NCBI GenBank assembly: GCA_015065205.1
Contig: SVQS01000003.1
Coordinates: forward strand, 1-33,452
Direction of reading: 5' to 3'
Source of the DNA: Oscillospiraceae bacterium
GTDB lineage: Bacteria; Bacillota; Clostridia; Oscillospirales; CAG-272
Length of the DNA stretch: 33,452 bases
The notes under the pieces: model-generated
What the model was told of the DNA's origin: nothing
The model's input: only the letters and a program-made list of their open reading frames with translations
Databases searched by the model: none
Made by a program: the position numbers and the translations under genes
Shown: in pieces, positions 7,106 through 19,262 of the stretch
Layout of the letters: each line of letters begins with the position of its first letter
Position numbering within the stretch: the stretch's first letter is position 1

Positions 7106-8185
7106 ATGAGTGAAACTATCAAAAACGCGTTGCCCGAAACCGACCTGCGCACGGCGGATTTTTACTATGATTTACCACAGGAGCTCATTGCGCAGCACCC
7201 GATGGAACAGCGCGATACCTCGCGTCTGATGGTGCTTGACAGAGCCGAGGAGAGCATCACGCACCGTCATTTTTATGATATTCTGGACTATCTGCACGAG
7301 GGTGACGTGTTGGTCATCAACGATTCCAAGGTCATCCCTGCGCGTGTGTATGGTCACGTCGAGGGTAGGGAAGAGGCACTGATCGAGTTGCTTCTTCTCC
7401 GCCAACACGAACTCGATACTTGGGAGTGCTTGGTCAAGCCCGGCAAGCGCGCACGCATTGGCATGAAGCTCGTATTTGGCGAGGGGATGCTTTTGGGTGA
7501 GGTCAAGGATATTGTAGAAGAAGGCAACCGTCTCATTCATTTTACCTATGACAAAGAAAAATATGCCAACATCTATGATGTATTGAGTGTTGTTGGATTG
7601 ATGCCCCTGCCGCCCTACATCACCGAAAGATTGACGGACAATAGCCGCTATCAAACGGTCTACGCGCGCGAGGAAGGCTCGGCTGCGGCTCCCACTGCGG
7701 GACTGCACTTTACTCCCGAATTGCTCGCACGTATTCGCGAAAAAGGCGTGGCAATCGCGCCCGTAATGCTGCACGTGGGCCTGGGAACCTTCCGTCCTGT
7801 TAAGGAAGAAAACATCACCGACCACGTGATGCACACCGAATTTTTCTCGGTTCCCGAAGAAGGTGCACGCATTATAAACGAATGCAAAGCCGCAGGCGGA
7901 CGCATCATTTGCGTGGGAACGACATCCTGCCGCACTATCGAAAGTGTTGCGCGCGAGGACGGAACCATTCCCGCGATGAGCGGTGACACCGGCATTTTTA
8001 TCTACCCGGGCTACAAATTCAAGGCAGTGGACGCACTCATCACCAATTTCCATCTGCCCGAGAGCACTCTTTTGATGCTCGTTTCCGCGTTTTATGACAA
8101 AGAAAAGGTGATGGAAGCGTATCACACCGCAGTTGAAGAAAAATACAGATTTTTCAGCTTTGGCGATGCGATGTTTATTCAGTGA
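7106..8185 (+). CDS. queA: tRNA preQ1(34) S-adenosylmethionine ribosyltransferase-isomerase
   Basis: 'DFYYDLPQELIAQ', 'MPLPPYI', 'YQTVYA..GSAAAPTAGLHF', 'LHVGLGTF', 'TNFHLPEST', 'RFFSFGDAM'. Confidence 0.97.
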   Translation: MSETIKNALPETDLRTADFYYDLPQELIAQHPMEQRDTSRLMVLDRAEESITHRHFYDILDYLHEGDVLVINDSKVIPARVYGHVEGREEALIELLLLRQHELDTWECLVKPGKRARIGMKLVFGEGMLLGEVKDIVEEGNRLIHFTYDKEKYANIYDVLSVVGLMPLPPYITERLTDNSRYQTVYAREEGSAAAPTAGLHFTPELLARIREKGVAIAPVMLHVGLGTFRPVKEENITDHVMHTEFFSVPEEGARIINECKAAGGRIICVGTTSCRTIESVAREDGTIPAMSGDTGIFIYPGYKFKAVDALITNFHLPESTLLMLVSAFYDKEKVMEAYHTAVEEKYRFFSFGDAMFIQ

Positions 8186-8214
8186 AAATTTATTTTGTGA
8201 AAAGGAGAAAGAGT

Positions 8215-9597
8215 ATGAAAAACATTTTTAAAATTGCAACATTATTTTGCTTGGCCATTTGCGTTATGCTATTGATGGCTGCTTGCAACACAAAGGATGA
8301 AACACCACAAACAACAACTAACGAAGAAACTACCTCTCCCGAAATTACCACTCCCGAAATCACAACCCCTGAGGAAACAACTGCTACCGATACTTCTGTA
8401 ACCTACACAGTAACCGTGGTGGACGAGAACAACGCGCCTCTTGCAGGTGCTACCGTTCAGCTTTGTGTTGGCGAGCTTTGCAGACTTCCCGTGTTTACCG
8501 GTGCAGACGGTGTTGCAATTCTTAAGATTGACGAAGCAGACTACACCGTAAAGGTAACCCTTGGCGGCTACACCGGCGAGGCAGAATATCACTTTGCCGC
8601 AGGCTCAACCGAGCTTACGGTTCAACTCACAAAAGTTCCCGAGGAAACATCAGAAGAAGATCTTTACCCCGAGCCGGTCAAGCAGCTGCTGACAAATAAC
8701 CAACCGTATTCTTTGGAGTTCGTTTCCAATGGAGACGGAACCTGCTATGTTAGCAAGCTGTATTTGAACAATCGATACGAGACTGCATTTGACATAATCA
8801 TTCCCGAACAATCCCCCACGGGAGATACTGTTACGGGCATTGACTTTGGGGACTCTCTCACCTCTCCGAATGACATAGTGCCTCGATTCTTGACGCAAAA
8901 TCAAGTAAATGAGATTTTAACGCAGGTCAAGGCAGATTATCCGGATCTGGAAAACGGCGATGTCGACAGATGGTGGATAAATGCATACCTTCATTTCGAT
9001 GTTTCAAAAATGTCACCATTGATGGCTCAAGAAATGATTAAAAGATATCCAGTGCTTGAATATATGAATATTATTTTTTCTTGGTCTTCCAAAATGTCTA
9101 AAGTTGATGACACCTTCTTGAGACTTAAAATGGCCGACATTACGTTGTCTGTAGCAAAACAGTGCTATGAAGACCTTATTCAAGAGATGCGTGATGCAGG
9201 TGCGCCCGAAGAAACGCTGACCATTTATAAAGAACTCTTAGAGGCAATGCCTGTGTACGTAAATCAGAGCGAATATGTTCGCTATTTACACATTCCGTCA
9301 TCGGTTACCAATATCAATGCAGAGTCGTTATCTTGTTTGATGTTTGAGTTTGAATATGATGGTGAGTGTATCGATAGAGGTGTTGTTCTTCCTGCGTTTG
9401 ATTTGCAAACCACAAATGCAATAAAGCGCGCCGTTGCCGCAAGTTTGCCTGATGAGTATGAATTTGTTATTTTTTCTCAAAGCACGTCCTCTGTTGGGTA
9501 TGAGGAAATCGACAATTTTGCAATCTATTCTCCTGAAGAACCCGAAAGCAATGTTCTTGCTTGGCACTATGTAGATGGTGTGCCGACGCTTTGGTAA
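8215..9597 (+). CDS. Putative surface lipoprotein: Thr/Pro/Glu linker, beta-sandwich domain, BspA/LRR_5-like segments
   Basis: RBS AAGGAG before ATG 8215. Signal peptide ends in lipobox MAAC. TTPE repeats, 'YTVTVVDENNAPLAGATVQLC', 'IIIPEQ', 'LHIPSSVTNI', C-terminal 'WHYVDGVPTLW'. Confidence 0.7.
   Translation: MKNIFKIATLFCLAICVMLLMAACNTKDETPQTTTNEETTSPEITTPEITTPEETTATDTSVTYTVTVVDENNAPLAGATVQLCVGELCRLPVFTGADGVAILKIDEADYTVKVTLGGYTGEAEYHFAAGSTELTVQLTKVPEETSEEDLYPEPVKQLLTNNQPYSLEFVSNGDGTCYVSKLYLNNRYETAFDIIIPEQSPTGDTVTGIDFGDSLTSPNDIVPRFLTQNQVNEILTQVKADYPDLENGDVDRWWINAYLHFDVSKMSPLMAQEMIKRYPVLEYMNIIFSWSSKMSKVDDTFLRLKMADITLSVAKQCYEDLIQEMRDAGAPEETLTIYKELLEAMPVYVNQSEYVRYLHIPSSVTNINAESLSCLMFEFEYDGECIDRGVVLPAFDLQTTNAIKRAVAASLPDEYEFVIFSQSTSSVGYEEIDNFAIYSPEEPESNVLAWHYVDGVPTLW
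8338..8382 (+). repeat. Three imperfect 15-bp tandem repeats coding the PEITT linker
   Basis: cccgaaattaccact cccgaaatcacaacc cctgaggaaacaact. Confidence 0.75.
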
Positions 9598-9648
9598 TAA
9601 ATCGATTGCGCGGGAAATTATCGCACAAAAAGTAATCATCGAATACCC

Positions 9649-9712
9649 CCCGCCCGAGGACAAAATCCTCGGGCTTTCTTATTGTTACGGTGAAACTAAC
9701 CAAAGCCTCCCT
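9649..9712 (+). terminator. Terminator hairpin, direct-repeat copy 1
   Basis: gcccgagga-caaaa-tcctcgggc-tttctt. Near-identical to 10496-10558. Confidence 0.8.
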
Positions 9713-9813
9713 CCGAGAGGGGGGCGAGTAAAATGAGCCAGATGAGGTGTAGCCGCCCTTGGCGGCGTTAGGTACAGTCAACTATCAGTTGATATTCAAA
9801 AAGCAAAAACCTA

Positions 9814-9842
9814 TTGACAATCCATCCATTATGTGTTACAAT
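9814..9842 (+). promoter_or_regulatory. sigmaA promoter of the 9.9-kb hypothetical gene
   Basis: TTGACA-17 bp-TACAAT with extended TG. Confidence 0.75.
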
Positions 9843-9913
9843 AAATTTGTGAGGGGGACGGCACCCATAACAAAAAACGGCATCACAAAATAATTGCATA
9901 TCACTATAAGGGG

Positions 9914-10492
9914 GTGACACCCATCGAAAAAAACATTATTGTAGTAGATGAGCAAGGAAATGAATATGAGGCGACCTATCCAAAACGGGCAAAAGGTCTT
10001 GTAAAAAACGGCAGGGCACGCTTCGTAGACGAAAACAAAATATGCCTTGCGTGTCCTCCGGATAAAATTTTGGAGGAAGAAAAAGTGTCTAATAATACAA
10101 ACGAATTGACCGCAAAGGAAATCTTCACACAGATTACCATTCTGCAAAAGCAGCTTACCGAAAACAGTCAAACATCTTTGCATCGCCTTGGGGATGCGCT
10201 TTCAACGTTCGAGAGTGAAAACGTTGAGGATTCCGGTGAGCAAATTTCCGAAATTTGCAATGTTTTTTATACGAGAGAGCTGACACTTCTCAAGATGCTT
10301 GAAATGTATGAAAAGATGTACAATGACATTCAAAACGAGGAAACCAAAAAAGTTAATTTGGTAAAATCGGCATTTGATAACAATATGGCAATGATAAAGG
10401 AATCCAATATGGAAACACAAGACAAGGTTGCAGCTCTCAGCTACGTTACCGATAAAATTGCAGAGCTTGTAGAAAAAGCAATCACCAAATAA
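9914..10492 (+). CDS. Hypothetical protein with RRXRR/PLMP-like N-terminal module and helical C-terminus; start uncertain (GTG 9914, ATC 9923 or GTG 10085)
   Basis: ORF has its own promoter and terminator. N-terminus 'IIVVDEQGNEYEATYPKRAKGLVKNGRARFV'. Confidence 0.75.
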   Translation: MTPIEKNIIVVDEQGNEYEATYPKRAKGLVKNGRARFVDENKICLACPPDKILEEEKVSNNTNELTAKEIFTQITILQKQLTENSQTSLHRLGDALSTFESENVEDSGEQISEICNVFYTRELTLLKMLEMYEKMYNDIQNEETKKVNLVKSAFDNNMAMIKESNMETQDKVAALSYVTDKIAELVEKAITK

Positions 10493-10495
10493 CAA

Positions 10496-10558
10496 CCCGC
10501 CCGAGGACAAAATCCTCGGGCTTTTTTATTGTTTGCAGTGACTAACGATAGGCTCCCT
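10496..10558 (+). terminator. Terminator hairpin, direct-repeat copy 2
   Basis: gcccgagga-caaaa-tcctcgggc-tttttt, a few bases after the stop codon. Confidence 0.85.
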
Positions 10559-10686
10559 TGTGTAAAGGGATGCTGTAAAATGTCGCAAGCGACAAGGGAC
10601 TGAGGGATTGTCTTAAAAGAATTTTGTTTTTAAAAATCCCTCCGCCTCGTATACACTCGGCACCTCCCTTTACACAAGGGAGGCTT
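10551..10686. repeat. REPIN-like inverted doublet of palindromic repeats
   Basis: Perfect 18-bp IR ctcccttgtgtaaaggga (10553-10570) / tccctttacacaagggag (10665-10682). Inner IR gagggatt / aatccctc. Small hairpin tgtcgc-aa-gcgaca. Confidence 0.75.
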
Positions 10687-10760
10687 TCTCATTCGCGCCT
10701 TTTTGTCAACTCCTACAAAACAAATTATCACATTTTTCAAAAAAATGTTTGATATAGGGC

Positions 10761-10789
10761 TTTTCATACGTCGTTTTTTGTGGTATAAT
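10761..10789 (+). promoter_or_regulatory. Putative promoter of typA
   Basis: Extended -10 TGgTATAAT (10781-10789) with weak -35 TTTTCA at 17 bp. Confidence 0.6.
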
Positions 10790-10842
10790 ATGTATTTGGT
10801 ATGTTTTGAAAAAAATTTGGACGAATATGGAGAATTGGAAAA

Positions 10843-12687
10843 GTGATCAGAGAAGATTTGAGAAACGTGGCAATTATCGCGCACGTTGACCACGGTAAAA
10901 CGACATTGGTAGACGGGCTCCTCAAGCAGGGCGGCATCTACCGCGAAAATCAAGAGACCGTTGTTCGCGTTATGGACTCCGGCGACCTTGAAAAAGAGCG
11001 CGGCATTACCATTTTGGCAAAGAACACCGCCGTTCACTATAAGGATATTAAGATCAACATCATCGATACCCCCGGCCACGCCGACTTTGGTGGCGAGGTT
11101 GAGAGAATTTTGAAGATGGTAAACGGTGTTATCCTTTTGGTTGACGCTGCCGAGGGACCTATGCCCCAAACACGCTTCGTTTTGCAAAAGGCGTTGGAGT
11201 TGAACCACCGCGTTATCGTTTGCATCAACAAAATAGACAAGCCCGATGCCCGTCTTGGCGAGGTTGAGGACGAAATTCTCGAACTCTTGATGGACCTTGG
11301 CGCAAACGACGAACAGCTCGACAGCCCGATGATGTACTGCTCGGGTCGTGCAGGTACTGCTACCGAGGATCCCCTCGAAGAGGGCGTTGACCTGACTCCT
11401 CTGTTTGAAAAGATCGTCAACTATATGCCTGCTCCCGAGGGAGATGAGACGGGTGATCTTCAGCTGCTCGTTTCCTCCATCGACTACAACGATTACGTTG
11501 GACGTATCGGTATCGGACGCATCGAGCGCGGAAACATTCGTGTAGGTCAAGAGGTTGCCATCTGCAACTATCACACCCCCGGCGCCATTAAAAAGACCAA
11601 GGTTGTCTCTCTTTACCAAATTGACGGTCTTGTTCGTCAGCCTGTTGAAAGAGCTACCGTTGGCGACATCGTCTGCTTCTCCGGTGCGGGCGACATCACC
11701 ATTGGCGACACATTGACCACCGTTGCCCATCCCGAGCCTTTGGAGTTCGTTAAGGTCTCCGAACCCACAATGGAGATGACCTTTATGGTCAACAACAGCC
11801 CCTTGGCGGGCAAGGAGGGTAAGTTTGTTACTTCCCGTCAGCTGCGCGACAGACTCTACCGCGAGCTGCTCAAGGATGTTTCCTTGCGCGTATCCGACGG
11901 TGACACCACCGACGAGTTCCGCGTTGCGGGCAGAGGTGAAATGCACCTTTCTATCCTTCTTGAAACCATGCGCCGCGAGGGCTTTGAGCTTGCTTGCTCC
12001 AATCCCCGTGTGCTTTACAAGGAAATCGACGGCAAAAAGTGCGAGCCTATGGAGCGCGTAACGCTTGACGTTCCTATGGATTACGTTGGCGTTGTTGTTG
12101 AAAAGCTCTCCCAACGCAAGGGCGACCTGCTCTCGATGAACCCTGTCGGAAGCCGCACACGTATCGAATATTCTATTCCGTCTCGTTGTCTGTTTGGCTA
12201 CCGTTCCGAGTTCCTCACCGCTACCCACGGCGAAGGTGTTATCAACACCATCTTCGATGGTTACGCACCTTATCGCGGAGAGATCACCATGAAGTTCACA
12301 GGCTCTCTCATCGCGTCCGAGGCAGGTGAGACCACCCGTTACGGTCTCTACAACACCCAGGAGCGCGGGCAGCTCTTTGTTGGTCCGCAAACGCAGGTTT
12401 ATGAGGGAATGATCGTTGGTGAAAACCCGAAAAACGATGACATTGCCGTCAATCCTTGCAAAAAGAAGCAACTCACCGCCATCCGTTCTGCGGGTGCGGA
12501 CGAAAAGCTTCTCTTGACTCCTGCCAAGATTTTCACCTTGGAAGAAGCAATCGAATATATCACCGATGACGACCTCATCGAGGTCACACCCAAGTCCATC
12601 CGTCTGCGCAAAAAGATCCTCAATACCGAACTCCGTATGAAGGAAATGATGCGCCGCCGCCGTGAATTGGAAGCACAAAAGAAGTAA
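10843..12687 (+). CDS. typA: Translational GTPase TypA/BipA
   Basis: 'LRNVAIIAHVDHGKTTLVD', 'ERGITILAKN', 'DTPGHADFGGEVER', 'GRGEMHLSIL', 'EVTPKSIRLRK'. Confidence 0.98.
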   Translation: MIREDLRNVAIIAHVDHGKTTLVDGLLKQGGIYRENQETVVRVMDSGDLEKERGITILAKNTAVHYKDIKINIIDTPGHADFGGEVERILKMVNGVILLVDAAEGPMPQTRFVLQKALELNHRVIVCINKIDKPDARLGEVEDEILELLMDLGANDEQLDSPMMYCSGRAGTATEDPLEEGVDLTPLFEKIVNYMPAPEGDETGDLQLLVSSIDYNDYVGRIGIGRIERGNIRVGQEVAICNYHTPGAIKKTKVVSLYQIDGLVRQPVERATVGDIVCFSGAGDITIGDTLTTVAHPEPLEFVKVSEPTMEMTFMVNNSPLAGKEGKFVTSRQLRDRLYRELLKDVSLRVSDGDTTDEFRVAGRGEMHLSILLETMRREGFELACSNPRVLYKEIDGKKCEPMERVTLDVPMDYVGVVVEKLSQRKGDLLSMNPVGSRTRIEYSIPSRCLFGYRSEFLTATHGEGVINTIFDGYAPYRGEITMKFTGSLIASEAGETTRYGLYNTQERGQLFVGPQTQVYEGMIVGENPKNDDIAVNPCKKKQLTAIRSAGADEKLLLTPAKIFTLEEAIEYITDDDLIEVTPKSIRLRKKILNTELRMKEMMRRRRELEAQKK

Positions 12688-12688
12688 T

Positions 12689-12800
12689 TGTCAAGGTCTA
12701 ATTTCATTGCTAACAAGTCTAATTTAATCGCTAACAAGATTGGGTTAAAAAATGCGATGTTTAATTTAATCGCTAACAAGTACAATTTAATCGCTAACAA
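12689..12800 (+). repeat. typA-proximal transposon end: four 21-bp putative transposase-binding sites
   Basis: Consensus gtctaatttaatcgctaacaa at 12696, 12717, 12759 and 12780, all in 21-bp phase with one unrelated 21-bp spacer. Confidence 0.9.
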
Positions 12801-12810
12801 GAAAATACCA

Positions 12811-12858
12811 AAGCAGAAGGACGGGACTCCAAAATTGGAGTTCCGTCCTTTTGCTTTT
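12811..12858 (+). terminator. Strong hairpin just inside the transposon end (would terminate typA read-through)
   Basis: aagcagaaggacgggactccaa-aa-ttggagttccgtccttttgctt followed by tt. Confidence 0.75.
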
Positions 12859-13001
12859 AAAACCGTATCGACCGCAGGCTCAATTTCTTTGAAATCGTGT
12901 GATTTATCGGTTATCTGTAAAGTGTTTTGAATGTTACGGATTATTTTATCCTTCGTAATTTCTTTTTCGTGTTGCTCTGTTCTGTCATATATTAAAAAAT
13001 A

Positions 13002-13030
13002 TTGAAAAACGATTGAATATATGATATAAT
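13002..13030 (+). promoter_or_regulatory. sigmaA promoter of the cargo operon
   Basis: TTGAAA-17 bp-TATAAT with extended TG. Confidence 0.75.
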
Positions 13031-13062
13031 AGACCATATAAAGCTTGTATTGGAGAATTTTT

Positions 13063-13497
13063 ATGCCTAACAAAAGCATTCAAATATACGTTGCCCTAAA
13101 GCACATGGGAAACGTAGCAAGAAAAGTAAAAGAATATCCGTTCTTACTCGGTAAGACACCGCGCACGTTTCGTGAGTTGATCGAAGAATCGGTAAGATCT
13201 TGCGTTGATGCATACAAGACACGCGCAAACAATGCGAACAACCCCGCACCGCTTACCGATGAGCAGCTTGACGGGATGCGCGAGATCGGCAAATTTGCGT
13301 TTGGTGTGCATTACAATGAAAACAAAATAGACGAAGAAAAAGCTATTCAAACTGCGATAGATGCGGTGACGGACGGACTTGTGCGCGTGTTCAAGGGGAC
13401 GAATGAAATTACCGATCTTGATGCCGAAATCGAAATATCCGAAGGCGATGTCTTTACGTTCGTAAGACTTACAATGCTCTCGGGCAGAATGTGGTAA
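13063..13497 (+). CDS. Small hypothetical protein with MoaD/ThiS (ubiquitin-like)-style C-terminus
   Basis: RBS GGAG before ATG 13063. C-terminus 'VRVFKGTNEITDLDAEIEISEGDVFTFVRLTMLSGRMW'. 13 bp upstream of the next gene. Confidence 0.75.
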   Translation: MPNKSIQIYVALKHMGNVARKVKEYPFLLGKTPRTFRELIEESVRSCVDAYKTRANNANNPAPLTDEQLDGMREIGKFAFGVHYNENKIDEEKAIQTAIDAVTDGLVRVFKGTNEITDLDAEIEISEGDVFTFVRLTMLSGRMW

Positions 13498-13510
13498 AGG
13501 AGGGACCCCA

Positions 13511-16500
13511 ATGGCGGATAATGTTTCGGAAAAATACGAAGCAATGATGAAAAAGAAAAAGCTCGCGGAAGCTTATGCGGAAAAATTTCGCAAGCGCGAG
13601 GAATTGCTGAAAGAAAAGCTAAGCAAGGGGCAGTATGATTTTTTCAAAAATCAAGGACAATTCCTTGACCAGACCATCTATTCGAATCTCGTAACGGCAA
13701 TGAGAAATCCGAGTACCGTTCCTTCGGAATACGTATCCAAAAAATTGGGATGGCTCTTTGATTTTGCAATTCCAAGCCGTGAAAAGGACGTTATTTTGTA
13801 TTTTGCGGACAGACTGCAAGAATATCCTTATTCGGATTCTTACAGCAGAAGATCGTTCAGGGCAAAAGGGAACGGCGCATACGCATCGAAGCTTGCGTAT
13901 ATGATCCGTCAATATGGCAATGCCAATATGAATGTAGTCGACGAGCCCCTCGACAAAATTATCACCGGAGAAGTATCCGAACAGGCCAAGGCTTATCTTG
14001 ACGGCTATGCTTGGCGCGGATGCGGATATACGGGATGGCAGGTAGCATACGCACTTGATCATCATAACAGTAAAGTAGAAGAAGCCGTTCGTCGAATCCT
14101 GACCGAGGAAAACGGTTCGGGAATGATGACAAACGAGCTTATTCGCGGTGTGGTTTTCAGCCACAGAAGTGATTTTCATGAGCTTCTGGGCAAGCTGCTT
14201 CTTGCGGCAAGACTGCAAGAAGGTCTCCGCCAAGTCATCTGCGAAAATGCCGATTACGGCACAAAAGCCTGTTTTCTCACCATATTAAAGGTAATTGCCG
14301 AGGACAATTTGATCCGTTTTTCATCGGTTAAGCGCGCTGTGGGAACTTGGCTTGGTATCTTGACGGAAGAAGCGCGCGATCTTGACCGCGTCAGCGAAAA
14401 GAGCGTTCGTCTGATCATTGATTGTCTTGAAGACGAAAACGCACGAAAGAAACACCTTGCATCCGAGGATGCGATGAAGATCTATATTGCTCTTTGGAGC
14501 TACGGTCTCGATGATATTGACGATGCCATTCAAAAAATCGTTCAGATTGCAAACAACGGCTCAATACATCAGTTACTTGTAGCAGGCTATTTTGTGGCAA
14601 ATCTCGATCTGCCGTATCTATCCAATCAGATCGCAAAGATCGTGCTGAAGAAGCACTACGATAAGGACGAGGTTCTTGCAGTATGGCTTCCTTGCTTTAT
14701 GCCCACACGAGTGTCTGCCTTGTGGAATGCCATAAGAAACGAGCAGCCTATCGAATACAACACTTGGTTTGATAGTAAGGCTGAAATACACGAGCATTAT
14801 CAGCTTATCAAAGAGCTGTATTCTGCTTTCTCCGGCAAAACCAAAACATTCTCCCCCTGTGTTTTTCCGTGGTATGAAGCCAAAATTGCCAAGAGTGATT
14901 TTGCCGAACTTCTTTGCACCTTGACGGCTTTGTTGGGGGATAATGAAAAAATTGATGAAGCCTGCGGCTTGATCAAAGAATGTGATTCCAATCAAAGGCA
15001 AACTTATTTTTACGCCCTGCTGCACAATCCCAAAACACCGCTCCAGCGTAAAACCGTGTTGGAAGGTCTTGTTGATAGAGAAACATACACTCGCAAATCA
15101 GCTTACACGATTGTGTCCCAAATGAAATTGTCGGCTGATGAATATCACTCTATCGAGGAATATTTGCGTTTTAAGGGTGCAGATATTCGTAAAAACGTAA
15201 TAGAGCTTTTGCTCCGGCAAAATGATTCCGAACTCACCGCGTGCATCGGTCGACTGCTTGAAAACAGCAAGGAAGAAGTGCGCCTTGGCGGACTTGATAT
15301 GCTGTTGCAGCTCAAAAAGGATGCAAAACGCCACAAAATCACAGAGTCCTTTGCAAGTATTCTTTCCCAAAGAGCAAAAGCCGATGATCTTCCCTCAAAG
15401 GAAAAGATCTTGCTTGATTCTCTTGTTCCCGCAAAAGCGGAAACGAAAACGGAGGCAGTCAAGCTGTTCTGTGCAGAGGACAAATACCTGCCTGTCGAAT
15501 TTGATGCAGAGTATACAGAGCTGTGTGCAAAGACCTTTGCAGAATATTTCCCGGACTCGAAATTGCCCGAGCTGATTCGCGGCAAAAAGAGGGGGATGAA
15601 CTTTTTTGACAAGATCAAATCGGCATTGACTGATCCTGTTGCCTGCAAATCCGCAACTGTTGCGGCGATGGATATTCTGTCGCTTTCCAAGCTGATTGAT
15701 GAGCATAAACGCGATCCGTTTGTAAATTCGTGGGGCGAAACTGTACTTTTTGGAAACGTACCGCCGCATTCTCCCCACCTTGAGGACAAAGACGGTAAAT
15801 TCGTGTTTGCAGAGCTCTGGGATGAATGGAAAAAGACCAATGGAATAACCAATGCGCGCCTTGTTCGTGCGCTCGTTTTGTTCAAAGCATACAGAAAGAA
15901 AACACACTTTTCCGTGACTTGCGCAGAGACGATAAGAACCGTATTTGGAGCAGGCTTTGAACGTGGCGAAAATCTTCCTTATCCCGCTATTATCGCCATG
16001 ATTCTCAGTCACCTGCTTGACTGTGTGCCGAAGGAAGAGCTCTCACAACTTGCATCCGCAATTGCGATATGGTTTATCGGGTGCGTACCTGATAATATGG
16101 TTATGATTCACGCTCCAACACAGGAAAAATTGCCAATGCAACTGGAAATGGCACACCTGCTTGCACACGCTCAGTTGTATCAAATTTACAAATGGTTGAA
16201 ATGTGAAAACAATGCTGATTTGAAAAACACTTTCCCATTAGCTGTTGCATCTGCGGAACGTTGTGTGGCAGCTTTCAAGAAGATTCCCAAAGAAGAAACG
16301 AAGATCGGCAATTCCTATTACTACATTGGCGATTCACGTATTCGTGTTTTGCACGAGCCGCATGAGAGTATGTACGGTTCTCGCAATCCTCTTGTCGGTG
16401 TAAACGCATATTTGTTTGCGGCATATCAAGGTATTATTACCAAGGCTCAGTTGTTTGAATTCTTGCTTGATGCTGATAACCTACGCGAATCGATGGAGAC

Positions 16501-18760
16501 CGTGACTGCTATTGCATCGACTTACTACGAAAAGGGGAAGCAGATCTCCGCCCACGATTCTTACAAGGGGATTCGCAATGCCCGTAAGGTGAAAGAGTTC
16601 CTTGGCAAAGAGGATGAACCGAGTGCAGAGGATATAAAGATCATCGAGTACGTTTCTCATATTTATGAAGCTGTTATTCCCGTCGTTCTTGCTTCCGAGC
16701 TTAGCCGTGGCGATAGCCCCGCGACCTATACCAAGGGAATTCACGGCATCGCGCGCATTTACGGAGCAAAATATCTCTCGGAGATATTGTCCGCTATGGG
16801 TAACGATACCCTTGACAGAACCGCATATTACGGTTGGGGCGAAGCAAGTAACCGCAAAGGCTCGCTTTCCTACCTTCTTTCCGTTTGTATCCCGTCCGAC
16901 GAGGATTCTGTAGATACGCTTCGTGCGGCTCTTTCGGGGAAGAAGATCACCACCAAGCGCTTGATCGAAGCGGCATTGTTCTCTCCCGAGTGGATACCGA
17001 TCATTGGCAAATATCTTGAGATCGATTCCTTTGAATCGGTTTGCTACTACTTTATGGCGCACATGAACGAAAGGTTCGACGACAAGCGCAAGGCGATGAT
17101 CGCAAGATTTACGCCCCTTTCGGAGGACGAATTGAATCTCGGTGCGTTTGACGTGAATTGGTTCCATTCTGCATACGATTCCATCGGAGAAAAGGAGTTT
17201 GACCTGATCTACGATGCCGCCAAGTACATTTCCGATGGTGCAAAGCATTCCCGCGCGAGAAAGTATGCGGATGCGACACTTGGCAAATTTGGTGTGGACG
17301 AGACCGAAAAGACCGTTTCCGACAAACGAAACAAAGACCTTTTGATGGCGTATGCACTCATACCGCTTTCGGGCGAAGACGATATTTGCCGCCGCTATCT
17401 TTATATCCAAAGATTCCGCAAGGAAAGCCGTCAGTTCGGTTCACAACGTGTAGCAAGCGAAGGGAAAGCTGTTGAAATGGCGCTTACCAACCTCGCGATC
17501 AACGCGGGATATTCCGATACGATGCGTCTCACCTTGCGTATGGAGACCAAGGTCATCGACGACAGCCGAGCACTTCTTGAAGAACAGATAATCGAGGGGG
17601 TATCCTTAAAGATAACACTTGATGAAAACGGCAAGGCAAGTCTTGTTTGTGCAAAGGACGGCAAGACGCTCAAGAGCGTTCCCGCAAAGCTGAAAAAGAA
17701 TGAAACCGTTGTGGCTCTTACCGATATGGTCAAAACGCTCACCGAGCAGTACAGACGCACACGGGTGATGCTTGAGAGAGCAATGGAAGACAGCACCATC
17801 TTTACCTTTGGTGAGCTTTCAGCACTGTCGGCGCATCCCGTGGTTTATCCGATGCTCAAAAATCTCGTGCTGATCAGCGGCGATGCCGTTGGCTTCCTTG
17901 CCGACAACGGACTTGTGAATGATAATGGAACGATACAGCCTCTTGACGATAGTGCGAAAATCAAGATCGCCCATCCGTTTGATCTTTACAGCAAGAGCTG
18001 TTGGAGAGATTATCAAAAGTATCTCTTTCAAAACAAGATCGCACAGCCCTTCCGCCAAGTATTCCGCGAGTTGTATGTCAAGACGGCAGAAGAAATGGAT
18101 ATGTTCCATTCTCTCAGATATGCCGGCAATCAGATACAGCCCGCCAAAACAGTCGGTGCGCTTAAGAGCCGCCGTTGGGTAGCGGATATTGAGGACGGTC
18201 TGCAAAAGGTTTATTACAAAGAGAACATTGTGGCGCAGATCTATGCGCTTGCCGATTGGTTCTCGCCTGCGGATATTGAAGCTCCCACGCTTGAATGGGT
18301 GTGCTTTACCAACCGAAAGACAGGTGAAGAGATCAAGATCGCGGATATTCCCGACATCGTATTCTCCGAGGTCATGCGCGACGTTGATCTCGCAGTCAGC
18401 GTAGCGCACGCAGGCGGTGTCGATCCCGAAACAAGCCACTCCACAATCGAGATGCGTGCGGCTATTCTTTCCTTTGTTCTGCCTATGTTCCGCATAGCAA
18501 ACGTCAAGGTAGAAGGTCATCACGCCATCGTGGACGGCAAGCTTGCAGAGTATTCGATCCACCTCGGAAGCGGTGTCGTGCATCAGATTGGTGCTGCAAT
18601 GATCCCCGTCCTGCCCGTCCATTCACAGCATAGAGGAAAGATATTCCTGCCTTTTGTGGATGACGATCCCAAGACAGCCGAGATCATATCCAAGGTTCTT
18701 TTGTTTGCAGAGGATGATAAGATCAAGGATCCTATGATATTGTCAAATATCAGTAAGTGA
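13511..18760 (+). CDS. Large DUF4132-domain (YehI/MolR-like) protein with helical-repeat N-terminal region
   Basis: RBS AAGGAGG. C-terminal motifs 'LKSVPAKLKK', 'IAHPFDL', 'QPFRQVFRELY', 'FSEVMRDVDLAVSV', 'YSIHLGSG', 'FLPFVDDDPKTAEIISKVLLFAEDDKIKDP'. HEAT-like repeats around aa 500-610. Confidence 0.85.
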   Translation: MADNVSEKYEAMMKKKKLAEAYAEKFRKREELLKEKLSKGQYDFFKNQGQFLDQTIYSNLVTAMRNPSTVPSEYVSKKLGWLFDFAIPSREKDVILYFADRLQEYPYSDSYSRRSFRAKGNGAYASKLAYMIRQYGNANMNVVDEPLDKIITGEVSEQAKAYLDGYAWRGCGYTGWQVAYALDHHNSKVEEAVRRILTEENGSGMMTNELIRGVVFSHRSDFHELLGKLLLAARLQEGLRQVICENADYGTKACFLTILKVIAEDNLIRFSSVKRAVGTWLGILTEEARDLDRVSEKSVRLIIDCLEDENARKKHLASEDAMKIYIALWSYGLDDIDDAIQKIVQIANNGSIHQLLVAGYFVANLDLPYLSNQIAKIVLKKHYDKDEVLAVWLPCFMPTRVSALWNAIRNEQPIEYNTWFDSKAEIHEHYQLIKELYSAFSGKTKTFSPCVFPWYEAKIAKSDFAELLCTLTALLGDNEKIDEACGLIKECDSNQRQTYFYALLHNPKTPLQRKTVLEGLVDRETYTRKSAYTIVSQMKLSADEYHSIEEYLRFKGADIRKNVIELLLRQNDSELTACIGRLLENSKEEVRLGGLDMLLQLKKDAKRHKITESFASILSQRAKADDLPSKEKILLDSLVPAKAETKTEAVKLFCAEDKYLPVEFDAEYTELCAKTFAEYFPDSKLPELIRGKKRGMNFFDKIKSALTDPVACKSATVAAMDILSLSKLIDEHKRDPFVNSWGETVLFGNVPPHSPHLEDKDGKFVFAELWDEWKKTNGITNARLVRALVLFKAYRKKTHFSVTCAETIRTVFGAGFERGENLPYPAIIAMILSHLLDCVPKEELSQLASAIAIWFIGCVPDNMVMIHAPTQEKLPMQLEMAHLLAHAQLYQIYKWLKCENNADLKNTFPLAVASAERCVAAFKKIPKEETKIGNSYYYIGDSRIRVLHEPHESMYGSRNPLVGVNAYLFAAYQGIITKAQLFEFLLDADNLRESMETVTAIASTYYEKGKQISAHDSYKGIRNARKVKEFLGKEDEPSAEDIKIIEYVSHIYEAVIPVVLASELSRGDSPATYTKGIHGIARIYGAKYLSEILSAMGNDTLDRTAYYGWGEASNRKGSLSYLLSVCIPSDEDSVDTLRAALSGKKITTKRLIEAALFSPEWIPIIGKYLEIDSFESVCYYFMAHMNERFDDKRKAMIARFTPLSEDELNLGAFDVNWFHSAYDSIGEKEFDLIYDAAKYISDGAKHSRARKYADATLGKFGVDETEKTVSDKRNKDLLMAYALIPLSGEDDICRRYLYIQRFRKESRQFGSQRVASEGKAVEMALTNLAINAGYSDTMRLTLRMETKVIDDSRALLEEQIIEGVSLKITLDENGKASLVCAKDGKTLKSVPAKLKKNETVVALTDMVKTLTEQYRRTRVMLERAMEDSTIFTFGELSALSAHPVVYPMLKNLVLISGDAVGFLADNGLVNDNGTIQPLDDSAKIKIAHPFDLYSKSCWRDYQKYLFQNKIAQPFRQVFRELYVKTAEEMDMFHSLRYAGNQIQPAKTVGALKSRRWVADIEDGLQKVYYKENIVAQIYALADWFSPADIEAPTLEWVCFTNRKTGEEIKIADIPDIVFSEVMRDVDLAVSVAHAGGVDPETSHSTIEMRAAILSFVLPMFRIANVKVEGHHAIVDGKLAEYSIHLGSGVVHQIGAAMIPVLPVHSQHRGKIFLPFVDDDPKTAEIISKVLLFAEDDKIKDPMILSNISK

Positions 18761-18855
18761 TTGAGGCATATTGAGCTTGAACGACTTACATAGGTTAGTT
18801 GATATCAGTAGAATGTCAATTTTTACGAAAGTTAAAATTGTTTGATAAGTCAACA

Positions 18856-18892
18856 GACCCCCGAGGCAAATTTTGCGCTTCGGGGGTTCTTT
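18856..18892 (+). terminator. Terminator of the cargo operon
   Basis: gacccccgaggc-aaattttgc-gcttcgggggtt-cttt. Confidence 0.7.
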
Positions 18893-19008
18893 GTAAAAAG
18901 GAAAAGTTTTCAAGATAAAAAGTCTTGTTTCAAAAATAGATGTAAGTTAACATTGAAGGGGCAAGTTTCTAACAAAGACAAAAACATCCGTTTTTATGCT
19001 TTATAAAC

Positions 19009-19145
19009 TTGTTAGCGATTAAATTAAACCTAAAAATAACGCATTTTCAGAAAAACAAATCTTGTTAGCGAATAAATTAGACCTGAAATGCTTAAAATTG
19101 CTCAAAAACACCGCAATCTGTTAGCGATGAAATTAGACTGTGACA
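19009..19145 (-). repeat. Distal transposon end: three spaced 21-bp putative transposase-binding sites
   Basis: Inverted copies at 19009-19029, 19062-19082 and 19118-19138 (53 and 56 bp apart), then terminal tgtgaca. Confidence 0.9.
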
Positions 19146-19160
19146 GTAATTGAAAGAGAA

Positions 19161-19262
19161 TGCAGGGGGGGAACTTTTTTCCAAAAAGTTCCCCCCCTGC
19201 ACCTCCTTCAAAAACTTTTGCACAAAAGGGAAGGAGAAGCCGTCGGTTCACAAACAGACGGA
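19161..19262. repeat. Structured dispersed repeat, partial inverted copy C
   Basis: Hairpin tgcagggggggaactttttt-cc-aaaaagttccccccctgca, then cctccttcaaaaactt and ccgtcggtt...aacagacgg, matching the 3' half of copies A and B in reverse orientation. Confidence 0.75.

Follow-up and report, generated by a model that had tools for sequence, protein, structure and literature searches.

The DNA studied here, hereafter the window, is the whole 33,452-nucleotide stretch of contig SVQS01000003.1 from an Oscillospiraceae bacterium (GCA_015065205.1; genome G000 below). At positions 12689-19145 it contains a 6,457-bp element that is very probably a non-autonomous Tn7-family transposon, a deletion derivative whose integration at the stop codon of the translational GTPase gene typA (bipA) followed the standard Tn7 route. 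The element (GC 45% vs 47-49% in the flanks) starts with TGTCAAG at 12689 and runs up to TGTGACA at 19145, giving the TGT…ACA termini of Tn7-like transposons. The pentanucleotide GTAAT abuts both termini (12684-12688 and 19146-19150) as a 5-bp target-site duplication, and the junctions read …AAGAA GTAAT/TGTCAAG… (12684-12695 region) and …TGTGACA/GTAAT TGAAAG… (19139-19156), where the slash marks the element boundary. The typA TAA stop falls inside the typA-side copy, and typA is left intact. An 8-nt duplication (AGTAATTG) or one otherwise shifted, in which terminal bases would overlap the flank, was rejected because the ends are symmetric (TGT/ACA) only with GTAAT. The features that define the element are as follows (G003 and G006 are relatives described below):

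10843-12687, plus strand: typA/bipA translational GTPase gene (Pfam GTP_EFTU 1e-53, BipA_C 2.5e-46)
12684-12688, no strand: target-site duplication, typA-side copy GTAAT (from the sequence; single copy in the G003 empty site)
12689-12802, plus strand: typA-proximal end, TGTCAAG followed by four 21-bp TnsB-type sites and one non-site slot, 12738-12758 (repeat analysis; G006 identity)
19009-19145, minus strand: distal end, three spaced 21-bp sites and …TGTGACA (repeat analysis)
19146-19150, no strand: target-site duplication, distal copy GTAAT (from the sequence)

When the core AATTTAATCGCTAACAA was searched at up to 3 mismatches, seven sites were found in the 33-kb window, all at the element ends and all facing inward, for an expectation of 0.12; seven were reached in none of 100 shuffles (0/100). 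At the packed, typA-proximal end, four 21-mers start at 12696, 12717, 12759 and 12780 (terminus offsets 7, 28, 70 and 91) and share a 21-nt phase in which the slot 12738-12758 is skipped and holds no site. At the spaced end, the sites lie at 19118-19138, 19062-19082 and 19009-19029 (offsets 7, 63 and 116). Every site agrees with the consensus at 19-21 of its 21 positions, and the outermost 27-28 nt of the two ends form a terminal inverted repeat that is 89% complementary. Four packed versus three spaced repeats make up the asymmetric array of putative TnsB-type sites that characterizes Tn7-like transposons. The initial annotation had already given these termini, the GTAAT pair and the seven motif positions; re-reading of the sequence and the motif search found all of these coordinates correct.

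We then compared the whole region with 40 relatives and read the junctions. In G003, which belongs to the same genus, typA shows 90% identity; one GTAAT comes after it, and next TGAAAAGAATGCAGGGG…, which is the sequence that follows position 19150 in the window. In a Logan contig of the public run X18, 11 nt separate 12690 from 19166, which is the same empty form. G003 and X18 thus supply the matching empty site for the 5-bp duplication, that is, the relatives with typA followed by a single GTAAT that the initial annotation had proposed to look for.

The family of the element was revealed by the genome G006. At the same typA site, G006:C87:15102-15223 is identical to window 12689-12810 at 122/122 positions; a longer alignment of the G000 and G006 ends matches at 170/175, with two mismatches counted in the first ~168 nt. 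The two typA genes agree at only 1255/1395 positions (90.0%), far below the end identity, which argues for recent horizontal spread. Homology between the window and G006 ceases 17 bp beyond the stop codon of the next G006 gene. The G006 genes that read toward this end encode, in order, a TniQ (607 aa), a second TniQ (~700 aa), TnsA (PF08722), TnsB (rve) and TnsC (AAA_22/TniB), and their best PDB matches are Tn7 TnsB (1.3e-35), Tn7 TnsC (5.7e-25), Tn7 TnsA (1.2e-29) and, weakly, Tn7 TnsD (6e-3). TnsA, with PF08722 at 8.4e-14, lies in the same operon as TnsC; the TniQ pair (PF06527 at 1.3e-16 and 8.9e-16) corresponds to TniQ/TnsD-type selectors, which would recognize typA; and TnsB is a 731-aa rve-domain protein whose gene ends (3′) ~1.7 kb from the identical end, with tnsC alone between. 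A parent-type element with the same ends, which the initial annotation had suggested seeking, therefore exists, it is of the TnsABC/TniQ type, and the Tn7-like label stands.

The window element itself carries no such operon. From the typA side, it consists of the four-site end, a hairpin, a tnsC stub, a promoter, a 144-aa open reading frame (ORF), a 1749-aa ORF, a second hairpin and the three-site end:

12812-12855, plus strand: strong hairpin and U-tract (RNA fold -35.5 kcal/mol, z -10.5; kept in G006)
12834-12971, minus strand: tnsC 3′ vestige, about aa 490-538 of G006 TnsC (tblastn; in frame within pseudo-ORF 13079-12399)
13002-13030, plus strand: promoter-like site of the cargo operon, TTGAAA-17-TATAAT with extended TG (11/12 consensus positions; kept upstream of the same cargo in G014)
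13063-13497, plus strand: cargo gene 1, 144-aa conserved protein, function unassigned (homologue search, AF2)
13511-18760, plus strand: cargo gene 2, 1749-aa DUF5724 + DUF4132 + DUF7737 protein (Pfam 4.7e-292, 1.1e-43, 2.1e-35)
18856-18888, plus strand: hairpin after the cargo gene, likely terminator (-23.8 kcal/mol, z -4.5)

A Pfam search of three element ORFs (13511-18760, 13045-13497 and an 80-aa ORF at 12688-12930) returned no Tns, IstA/IstB or other transposase domain. When the element was searched by tblastn with ten Tns-type ORF products of G006 and of a second autonomous element, in G049 (below), only the tnsC stub was found. This bears out the claim that the element lacks tnsA/B/C, tniQ and istAB ORFs; having none of the tnsB, tnsC and tniQ genes of an autonomous Tn7-like transposon, and no Tns gene beyond the stub, it is a non-autonomous derivative. 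The stub (about 46 codons) matches G006 TnsC at 49% over 49 aa (tblastn E 3.9e-5 with the whole genome as target and 1.8e-7 with just the element) and G049 TnsC at 39% over 36 aa (E 5e-5). It adjoins the packed end and lies on the same strand as tnsC in G006 and G049, the expected place and orientation, indicating descent from an autonomous element by loss of tniQ-tniQ-tnsA-tnsB and most of tnsC. The origin by internal deletion that the initial annotation had offered as one option is thus supported.

The arrangement is not restricted to one assembly. Part of the stretch is contained in 20 public runs, which come from animal gut or faeces and belong to 13 studies; four of these runs were compared as Logan contigs (X7, X10, X13, X18; four studies). 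Each of the four spans most of the element, and the stub-cargo junction and both ends recur in all of them, showing that the element is not an assembly artefact. The X7 and X13 contigs start matching exactly at 12683, and X7 record 32 crosses the distal end into the flank.

Altogether, these data suggest the following history. A TniQ/TnsD-type selector would recognize the conserved 3′ coding end of typA, presumed to be the attachment (att) sequence, and TnsC would relay this choice to the TnsA+TnsB transposase. TnsB would bind the seven 21-bp repeats and join the TGT…ACA ends to target positions 5 bp apart; GTAAT, including the stop codon, would thereby be duplicated (as the sequence records) and typA kept whole. 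The packed four-site end faces the att gene, like the right end of Tn7. The ancestor would have had the layout seen in G006 and G049 (packed end, tnsC, tnsB, tnsA, tniQ, tniQ, cargo, spaced end), and an internal deletion or replacement would have removed the tns operon except for the tnsC 3′ stub, leaving it joined to a promoter-driven two-gene cargo. With its ends intact, the element could move only if TnsABC and TniQ cognate to its end type (type A, below) were supplied in trans; such mobilization is plausible.

To place the element in its genus, typA 3′ junctions were read in 21 genus genomes; G001, G010, G012, G020, G021 and G023 are outside this set (contig ends or no match). A TGT-started multi-repeat end, or a remnant of one, lies exactly at the typA stop codon in 9/21 junctions, and these ends fall into three unrelated families. 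G049 and G051 were chosen via other searches, and the unselected sample gives 7/19. The packed end faces typA in all nine junctions that carry an end:

Type A ends (window motif): G000; G006; G051 (86% identical, flank GTGAT); G009 (one-site scar)
Type C ends (GTTACAACTCTAATTGAAA-type sites): G049; G024; G008 (two sites); G014 (innermost site only)
Type B ends (TTAAACTCTTCTCTTAACGG-type sites): G004

The other 12 of the 21 (G002, G003, G005, G007, G011, G013, G015-G019 and G022) have no end at typA. Judged from these junctions, the typA stop codon is an insertion hotspot in the genus. Around the type-A remnant of G009 (C66), housekeeping genes directly follow the one-site scar behind typA, and an orphan innermost distal site lies on a separate contig (G009:C11:927-980; 96% over 54 nt to window 19010-19063). 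In G004, contig C229 stops 10 nt too early to show a type-B distal end.

G049 holds a second autonomous element, in which the four-site type-C end after typA is followed on the opposite strand by tnsC, tnsB, tnsA, a split tniQ and a tniQ. In its second tniQ the frame is broken into two ORFs (358 and 298 aa), and one in-frame TAG interrupts the TnsB match; this element may be decaying. Between G006 (C87:6704-15038) and G049 (C27, stretch 7608-15864), identity is 76% for TniQ1, 71-79% for TniQ2 and 77% for TnsA, but only 38% for TnsB and 49% for TnsC, and their end repeats show no relationship. Both autonomous typA-targeting elements are mosaic in this respect, which suggests an exchange of the TnsB-TnsC-ends module behind conserved TniQ and TnsA. 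The lineage is rare: the TnsA family occurs in 3/78 genus genomes, G006-like TnsB in 2/78, and G006 TniQ1 has no match in 401 genomes of the order (400 others and G000). The TnsA-domain gene of G060 was considered as a further family member and rejected as unrelated. Ends without assembled tns genes outnumber autonomous copies, in assemblies that are incomplete. Exact 18-mer scans brought up no further parent or copy, neither in metagenome contigs (11 single-match stretches) nor in genome contigs (9 stretches, 8 of them single and one, L050, with three sites), and a plasmid collection held no match to the element end.

A parallel to the window exists in the type-C lineage. In G014, a truncated end precedes a tnsC stub that aligns with G049 TnsC aa 481-547 at 63-78%; after the stub comes the promoter-ORF144-DUF5724 cassette known from the window, with 86% identity to it at the DNA level. 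The stub-cargo junctions of G014 and the window differ and G049 lacks the cassette, so the cassette was joined to the tnsC stubs of the two lineages either independently or by exchange.

Several observations weigh against a transposon that integrated by the standard route and kept the capacity to move. First, the stub is 49% identical to G006 TnsC in protein and about 70% in DNA, while the adjacent ~168 nt of the end are ~99% identical; this contrast makes G006 a sibling instead of the immediate parent and requires recombination close to the end. Second, tblastn with the G006 and G049 proteins found no cognate TnsA, TnsB, TnsC or TniQ in G000 beyond the stub (a weak negative, the genome being 74.7% complete), and a TniQ family search of G000 was empty, which is weak too since control genomes were equally silent; nothing found in the assembly could therefore move the element. 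Third, the mini-element is seen at the typA locus only, so that movement in its present form is indistinguishable from gene loss in place; G000 (1.84 Mb, 202 contigs) has no further motif array, only four single 3-mismatch matches on four contigs. Fourth, the distal ends of the autonomous G006 and G049 elements are absent from their contigs and not found elsewhere in those assemblies, leaving the three-site end with no autonomous counterpart for comparison; a candidate, G049:C30, was rejected as an unrelated repeat. Finally, there are two junction variants: G006 reads …GTAA/TGTCAAGG, one T fewer than the window (GTAA/TGTC), and in runs X10 and X13 an additional A follows 19144, so that the junction becomes TGTGACAAGTAAT. 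These could be 1-bp offset insertions or simple indels.

The rival that survives best, to which we give slightly less than an even chance, is that the element is an immobile fossil: an autonomous type-A element at typA lost its tns operon in place and has not moved since, being kept by its cargo or by neutrality. The tnsC stub places the loss after an autonomous stage, and the sighting at typA only and the missing cognate transposase in G000 both fit, as do decay stages standing at the same site (the one-site scar of G009, the truncated end and stub of G014, the two sites of G008). However, truly decayed relatives lose sites, whereas this element retains its duplication and two complete ends with the full set of seven sites. 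The end is also ~99% identical to its counterpart in an autonomous element although the typA genes of the two hosts differ by 10%, which indicates that the lineage was mobile very recently. In addition, a TniQ-targeted element would always land at typA, so its confinement to this locus does not speak against movement.

A further reading, which we regard as unlikely, is that the typA stop codon is a contested landing pad where gene-less derivatives act as squatters among at least three TnsB/TnsC/end lineages that share near-identical TniQ and TnsA selectors. The full set of TnsB sites would then confer target immunity against the element's own lineage, shield its cargo and leave it movable in trans, and the site would stay open to other lineages. 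Run X7 offers a case to compare: one contig matches typA with 0 differences over 283 nt and continues into a type-C end, and another has a DUF5724-like 3′ end and 92 nt directly before A-GTAAT and the type-A end. Whether or not the landing-pad reading holds, we interpret the two contigs as parts of a tandem array with the order typA-[another element]-GTAAT-[mini-element], produced by a later insertion at the same site, a candidate arrangement whose linkage the contigs cannot prove. The presence of the same cassette on tnsC stubs of two lineages (window and G014) suggests cargo exchange between tandem elements at typA.

Membership in a different family whose ends carry multiple repeats is very improbable, whether IS21 (IstA/IstB), Tn5053/Tn402 (TniABQR, in which a resolvase is present and TnsA absent) or a Mu-like family. 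Mu and the Tn5053 family also have multiple terminal repeats and 5-bp duplications. Yet the sole genes found adjoining the identical end are those for TnsA, TnsB, TnsC and two TniQ proteins; Pfam analysis of ten G006 ORFs returned no IstA, IstB or resolvase; and IstB_IS21 was matched only as a weak side match of FtsH in G009. At odds with Tn5053/Tn402, both G006 and G049 encode TnsA, and the operon showed no resolvase. IS21, which the initial annotation had named as the main alternative, is refuted, since the genes beside the G006 end are TnsABC and TniQ and not IstA/IstB. That the repeats and the GTAAT pair arose by chance or as an assembly artefact is refuted by the shuffles, by the same end in the independent genome G006 and by contigs from independent runs that cover both junctions and the interior, and nothing was found in its favour.

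As a Tn7-family transposon, the element can be compared with prototypic Tn7 (E. coli; TnsABCDE, attTn7 downstream of glmS). Both have TGT…ACA termini, a 5-bp duplication, four packed sites facing the att gene and three spaced ones, and both sit at the 3′ end of a housekeeping gene that is not inactivated; TnsA, TnsB and TnsC of the G006 sibling have Tn7 proteins as best PDB matches. Unlike Tn7, the element has no tns genes, its att gene is typA and not glmS, its 21-bp sites abut where the 22-bp sites of Tn7 overlap, and it lies at the stop codon itself, which the duplication contains. The insertion point of Tn7 is some 25 bp downstream of glmS. In the autonomous siblings, moreover, the operon tniQ-tniQ-tnsA-tnsB-tnsC reads toward the packed end and no TnsE was seen. 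The window element works like Tn7, has every cis feature for which it was tested as a member of the family, and departs only in lacking transposition genes of its own.

These features agree with what PMC11406308 summarizes for Tn7 and its relatives, namely that every relative makes a 5-bp duplication, that the right end has four overlapping sites and the left end spaced ones, and that the att sequence lies beyond the right end. According to the same source, TnsB binds the end repeats and staggered 5-bp joining makes the duplication, TnsD/TniQ binds outside the right end, and TnsC connects selector and transposase and also mediates target immunity. The gene-orientation convention given there would name the siblings' packed end 'left'. 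Laboratory mini-Tn7 and mini-CAST donors, as described in PMC11014353 and PMC9881144, likewise consist of cis-acting ends with cargo between them and proteins supplied in trans; the window element differs in being natural, in carrying a tnsC stub that records its origin and in that its mobilization is putative. The Tn6022/AbaR-type islands at comM in Acinetobacter resemble the typA locus in that Tn7-like elements build and diversify islands at one att site, where target immunity is at issue (PMC11014353), but host, att gene and cargo differ, and comM is interrupted (PMC9881144) whereas typA is intact.

Part of the finding has precedents. Partly degraded Tn7-like elements with intact ends, possibly mobilized in trans, are already known from PMC11837452: the cyanobacterial CRISPR-array-targeting elements described there have tns deletions and intact ends, and their authors suggest trans mobilization. 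Those elements still have tnsD together with portions of tnsAB and tnsC, and some occur in several copies; of the operon, the window element retains only ~46 tnsC codons, and it is single-copy. The typA stop-codon att site appears undescribed so far: a typA/bipA att site is mentioned neither in the main texts of PMC8649781 and PMC10293859 nor in the results of our literature searches, with supplements, the likely place of att-site tables, outside the search. Also new, it seems, are the loss of the full operon with perfect ends and the use of a single site by three end families. A delineation of Tn7-like transposons is given by Benler et al. 2021 (PMC8649781). As the element shows, a Tn7-family transposon can survive as a complete cassette without a transposase, and such cassettes are invisible to tnsB-anchored surveys; cargo censuses and att-site catalogues may thus undercount them. 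The relatives, with one site, three end families and swapped TnsB/TnsC behind conserved TniQ/TnsA, provide a natural test system for end specificity, target immunity and module compatibility, and a widespread two-gene cassette of unassigned function is flagged as mobile cargo.

For the first cargo protein (144 aa), a search at E<=1e-3 gave 346 homologues, all of which lack Pfam domains. Identity is 78-100% among the top 120, and the small number of named sources are Clostridia or Ruminococcaceae metagenome-assembled genomes. The AF2 model of this protein (pLDDT 79.3) has no significant PDB match in Foldseek (best E 0.028), and the weak ubiquitin-like matches at this level were not accepted; the ESM Atlas holds unnamed clusters only. 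For the 1749-aa protein, PADLOC gives one weak match (HEAT-ARM_XIII, E 0.0083), NCBIfam none, and a PDB sequence search a best E of 0.74. A literature search found no paper on DUF5724 or DUF7737, and DUF4132 is absent from the titles and abstracts of the five papers that mention it. In G006:C87, the genes beyond the tns operon encode a 429-aa protein without a Pfam domain, a LytTR response regulator, a GHKL histidine kinase and two ABC-transporter ATPase fusion proteins, and are possible cargo.

Both internal hairpins were missed by a consensus terminator scan and found by direct folding. The first, whose G006 counterpart sits just beyond the tnsC stop, probably terminates typA read-through, as its fold and position suggest. 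A 226-aa minus-strand ORF (12399-13079, starting at 13079) was rejected as a true gene, the stub frame simply running on through the hairpin, the TnsB sites and antisense typA. In this frame the four TnsB sites translate as repeated LLAIKL, and gene callers could report a hypothetical protein.

Beyond the distal end, the far flank holds a convergent α/β-hydrolase gene (Pfam) and one further feature:

19161-19201, no strand: perfect 19-bp palindrome (inverted repeat 100% complementary; fold -37.3 kcal/mol)

This palindrome directly follows typA in G003 and is the predicted terminator of typA before the insertion. It (TGCAGGGGGGGAACTTTTT…) is one copy of a short repeat that is dispersed, with dozens of matches, in G000 and in most genus genomes, and that looks like a REP-like terminator element.

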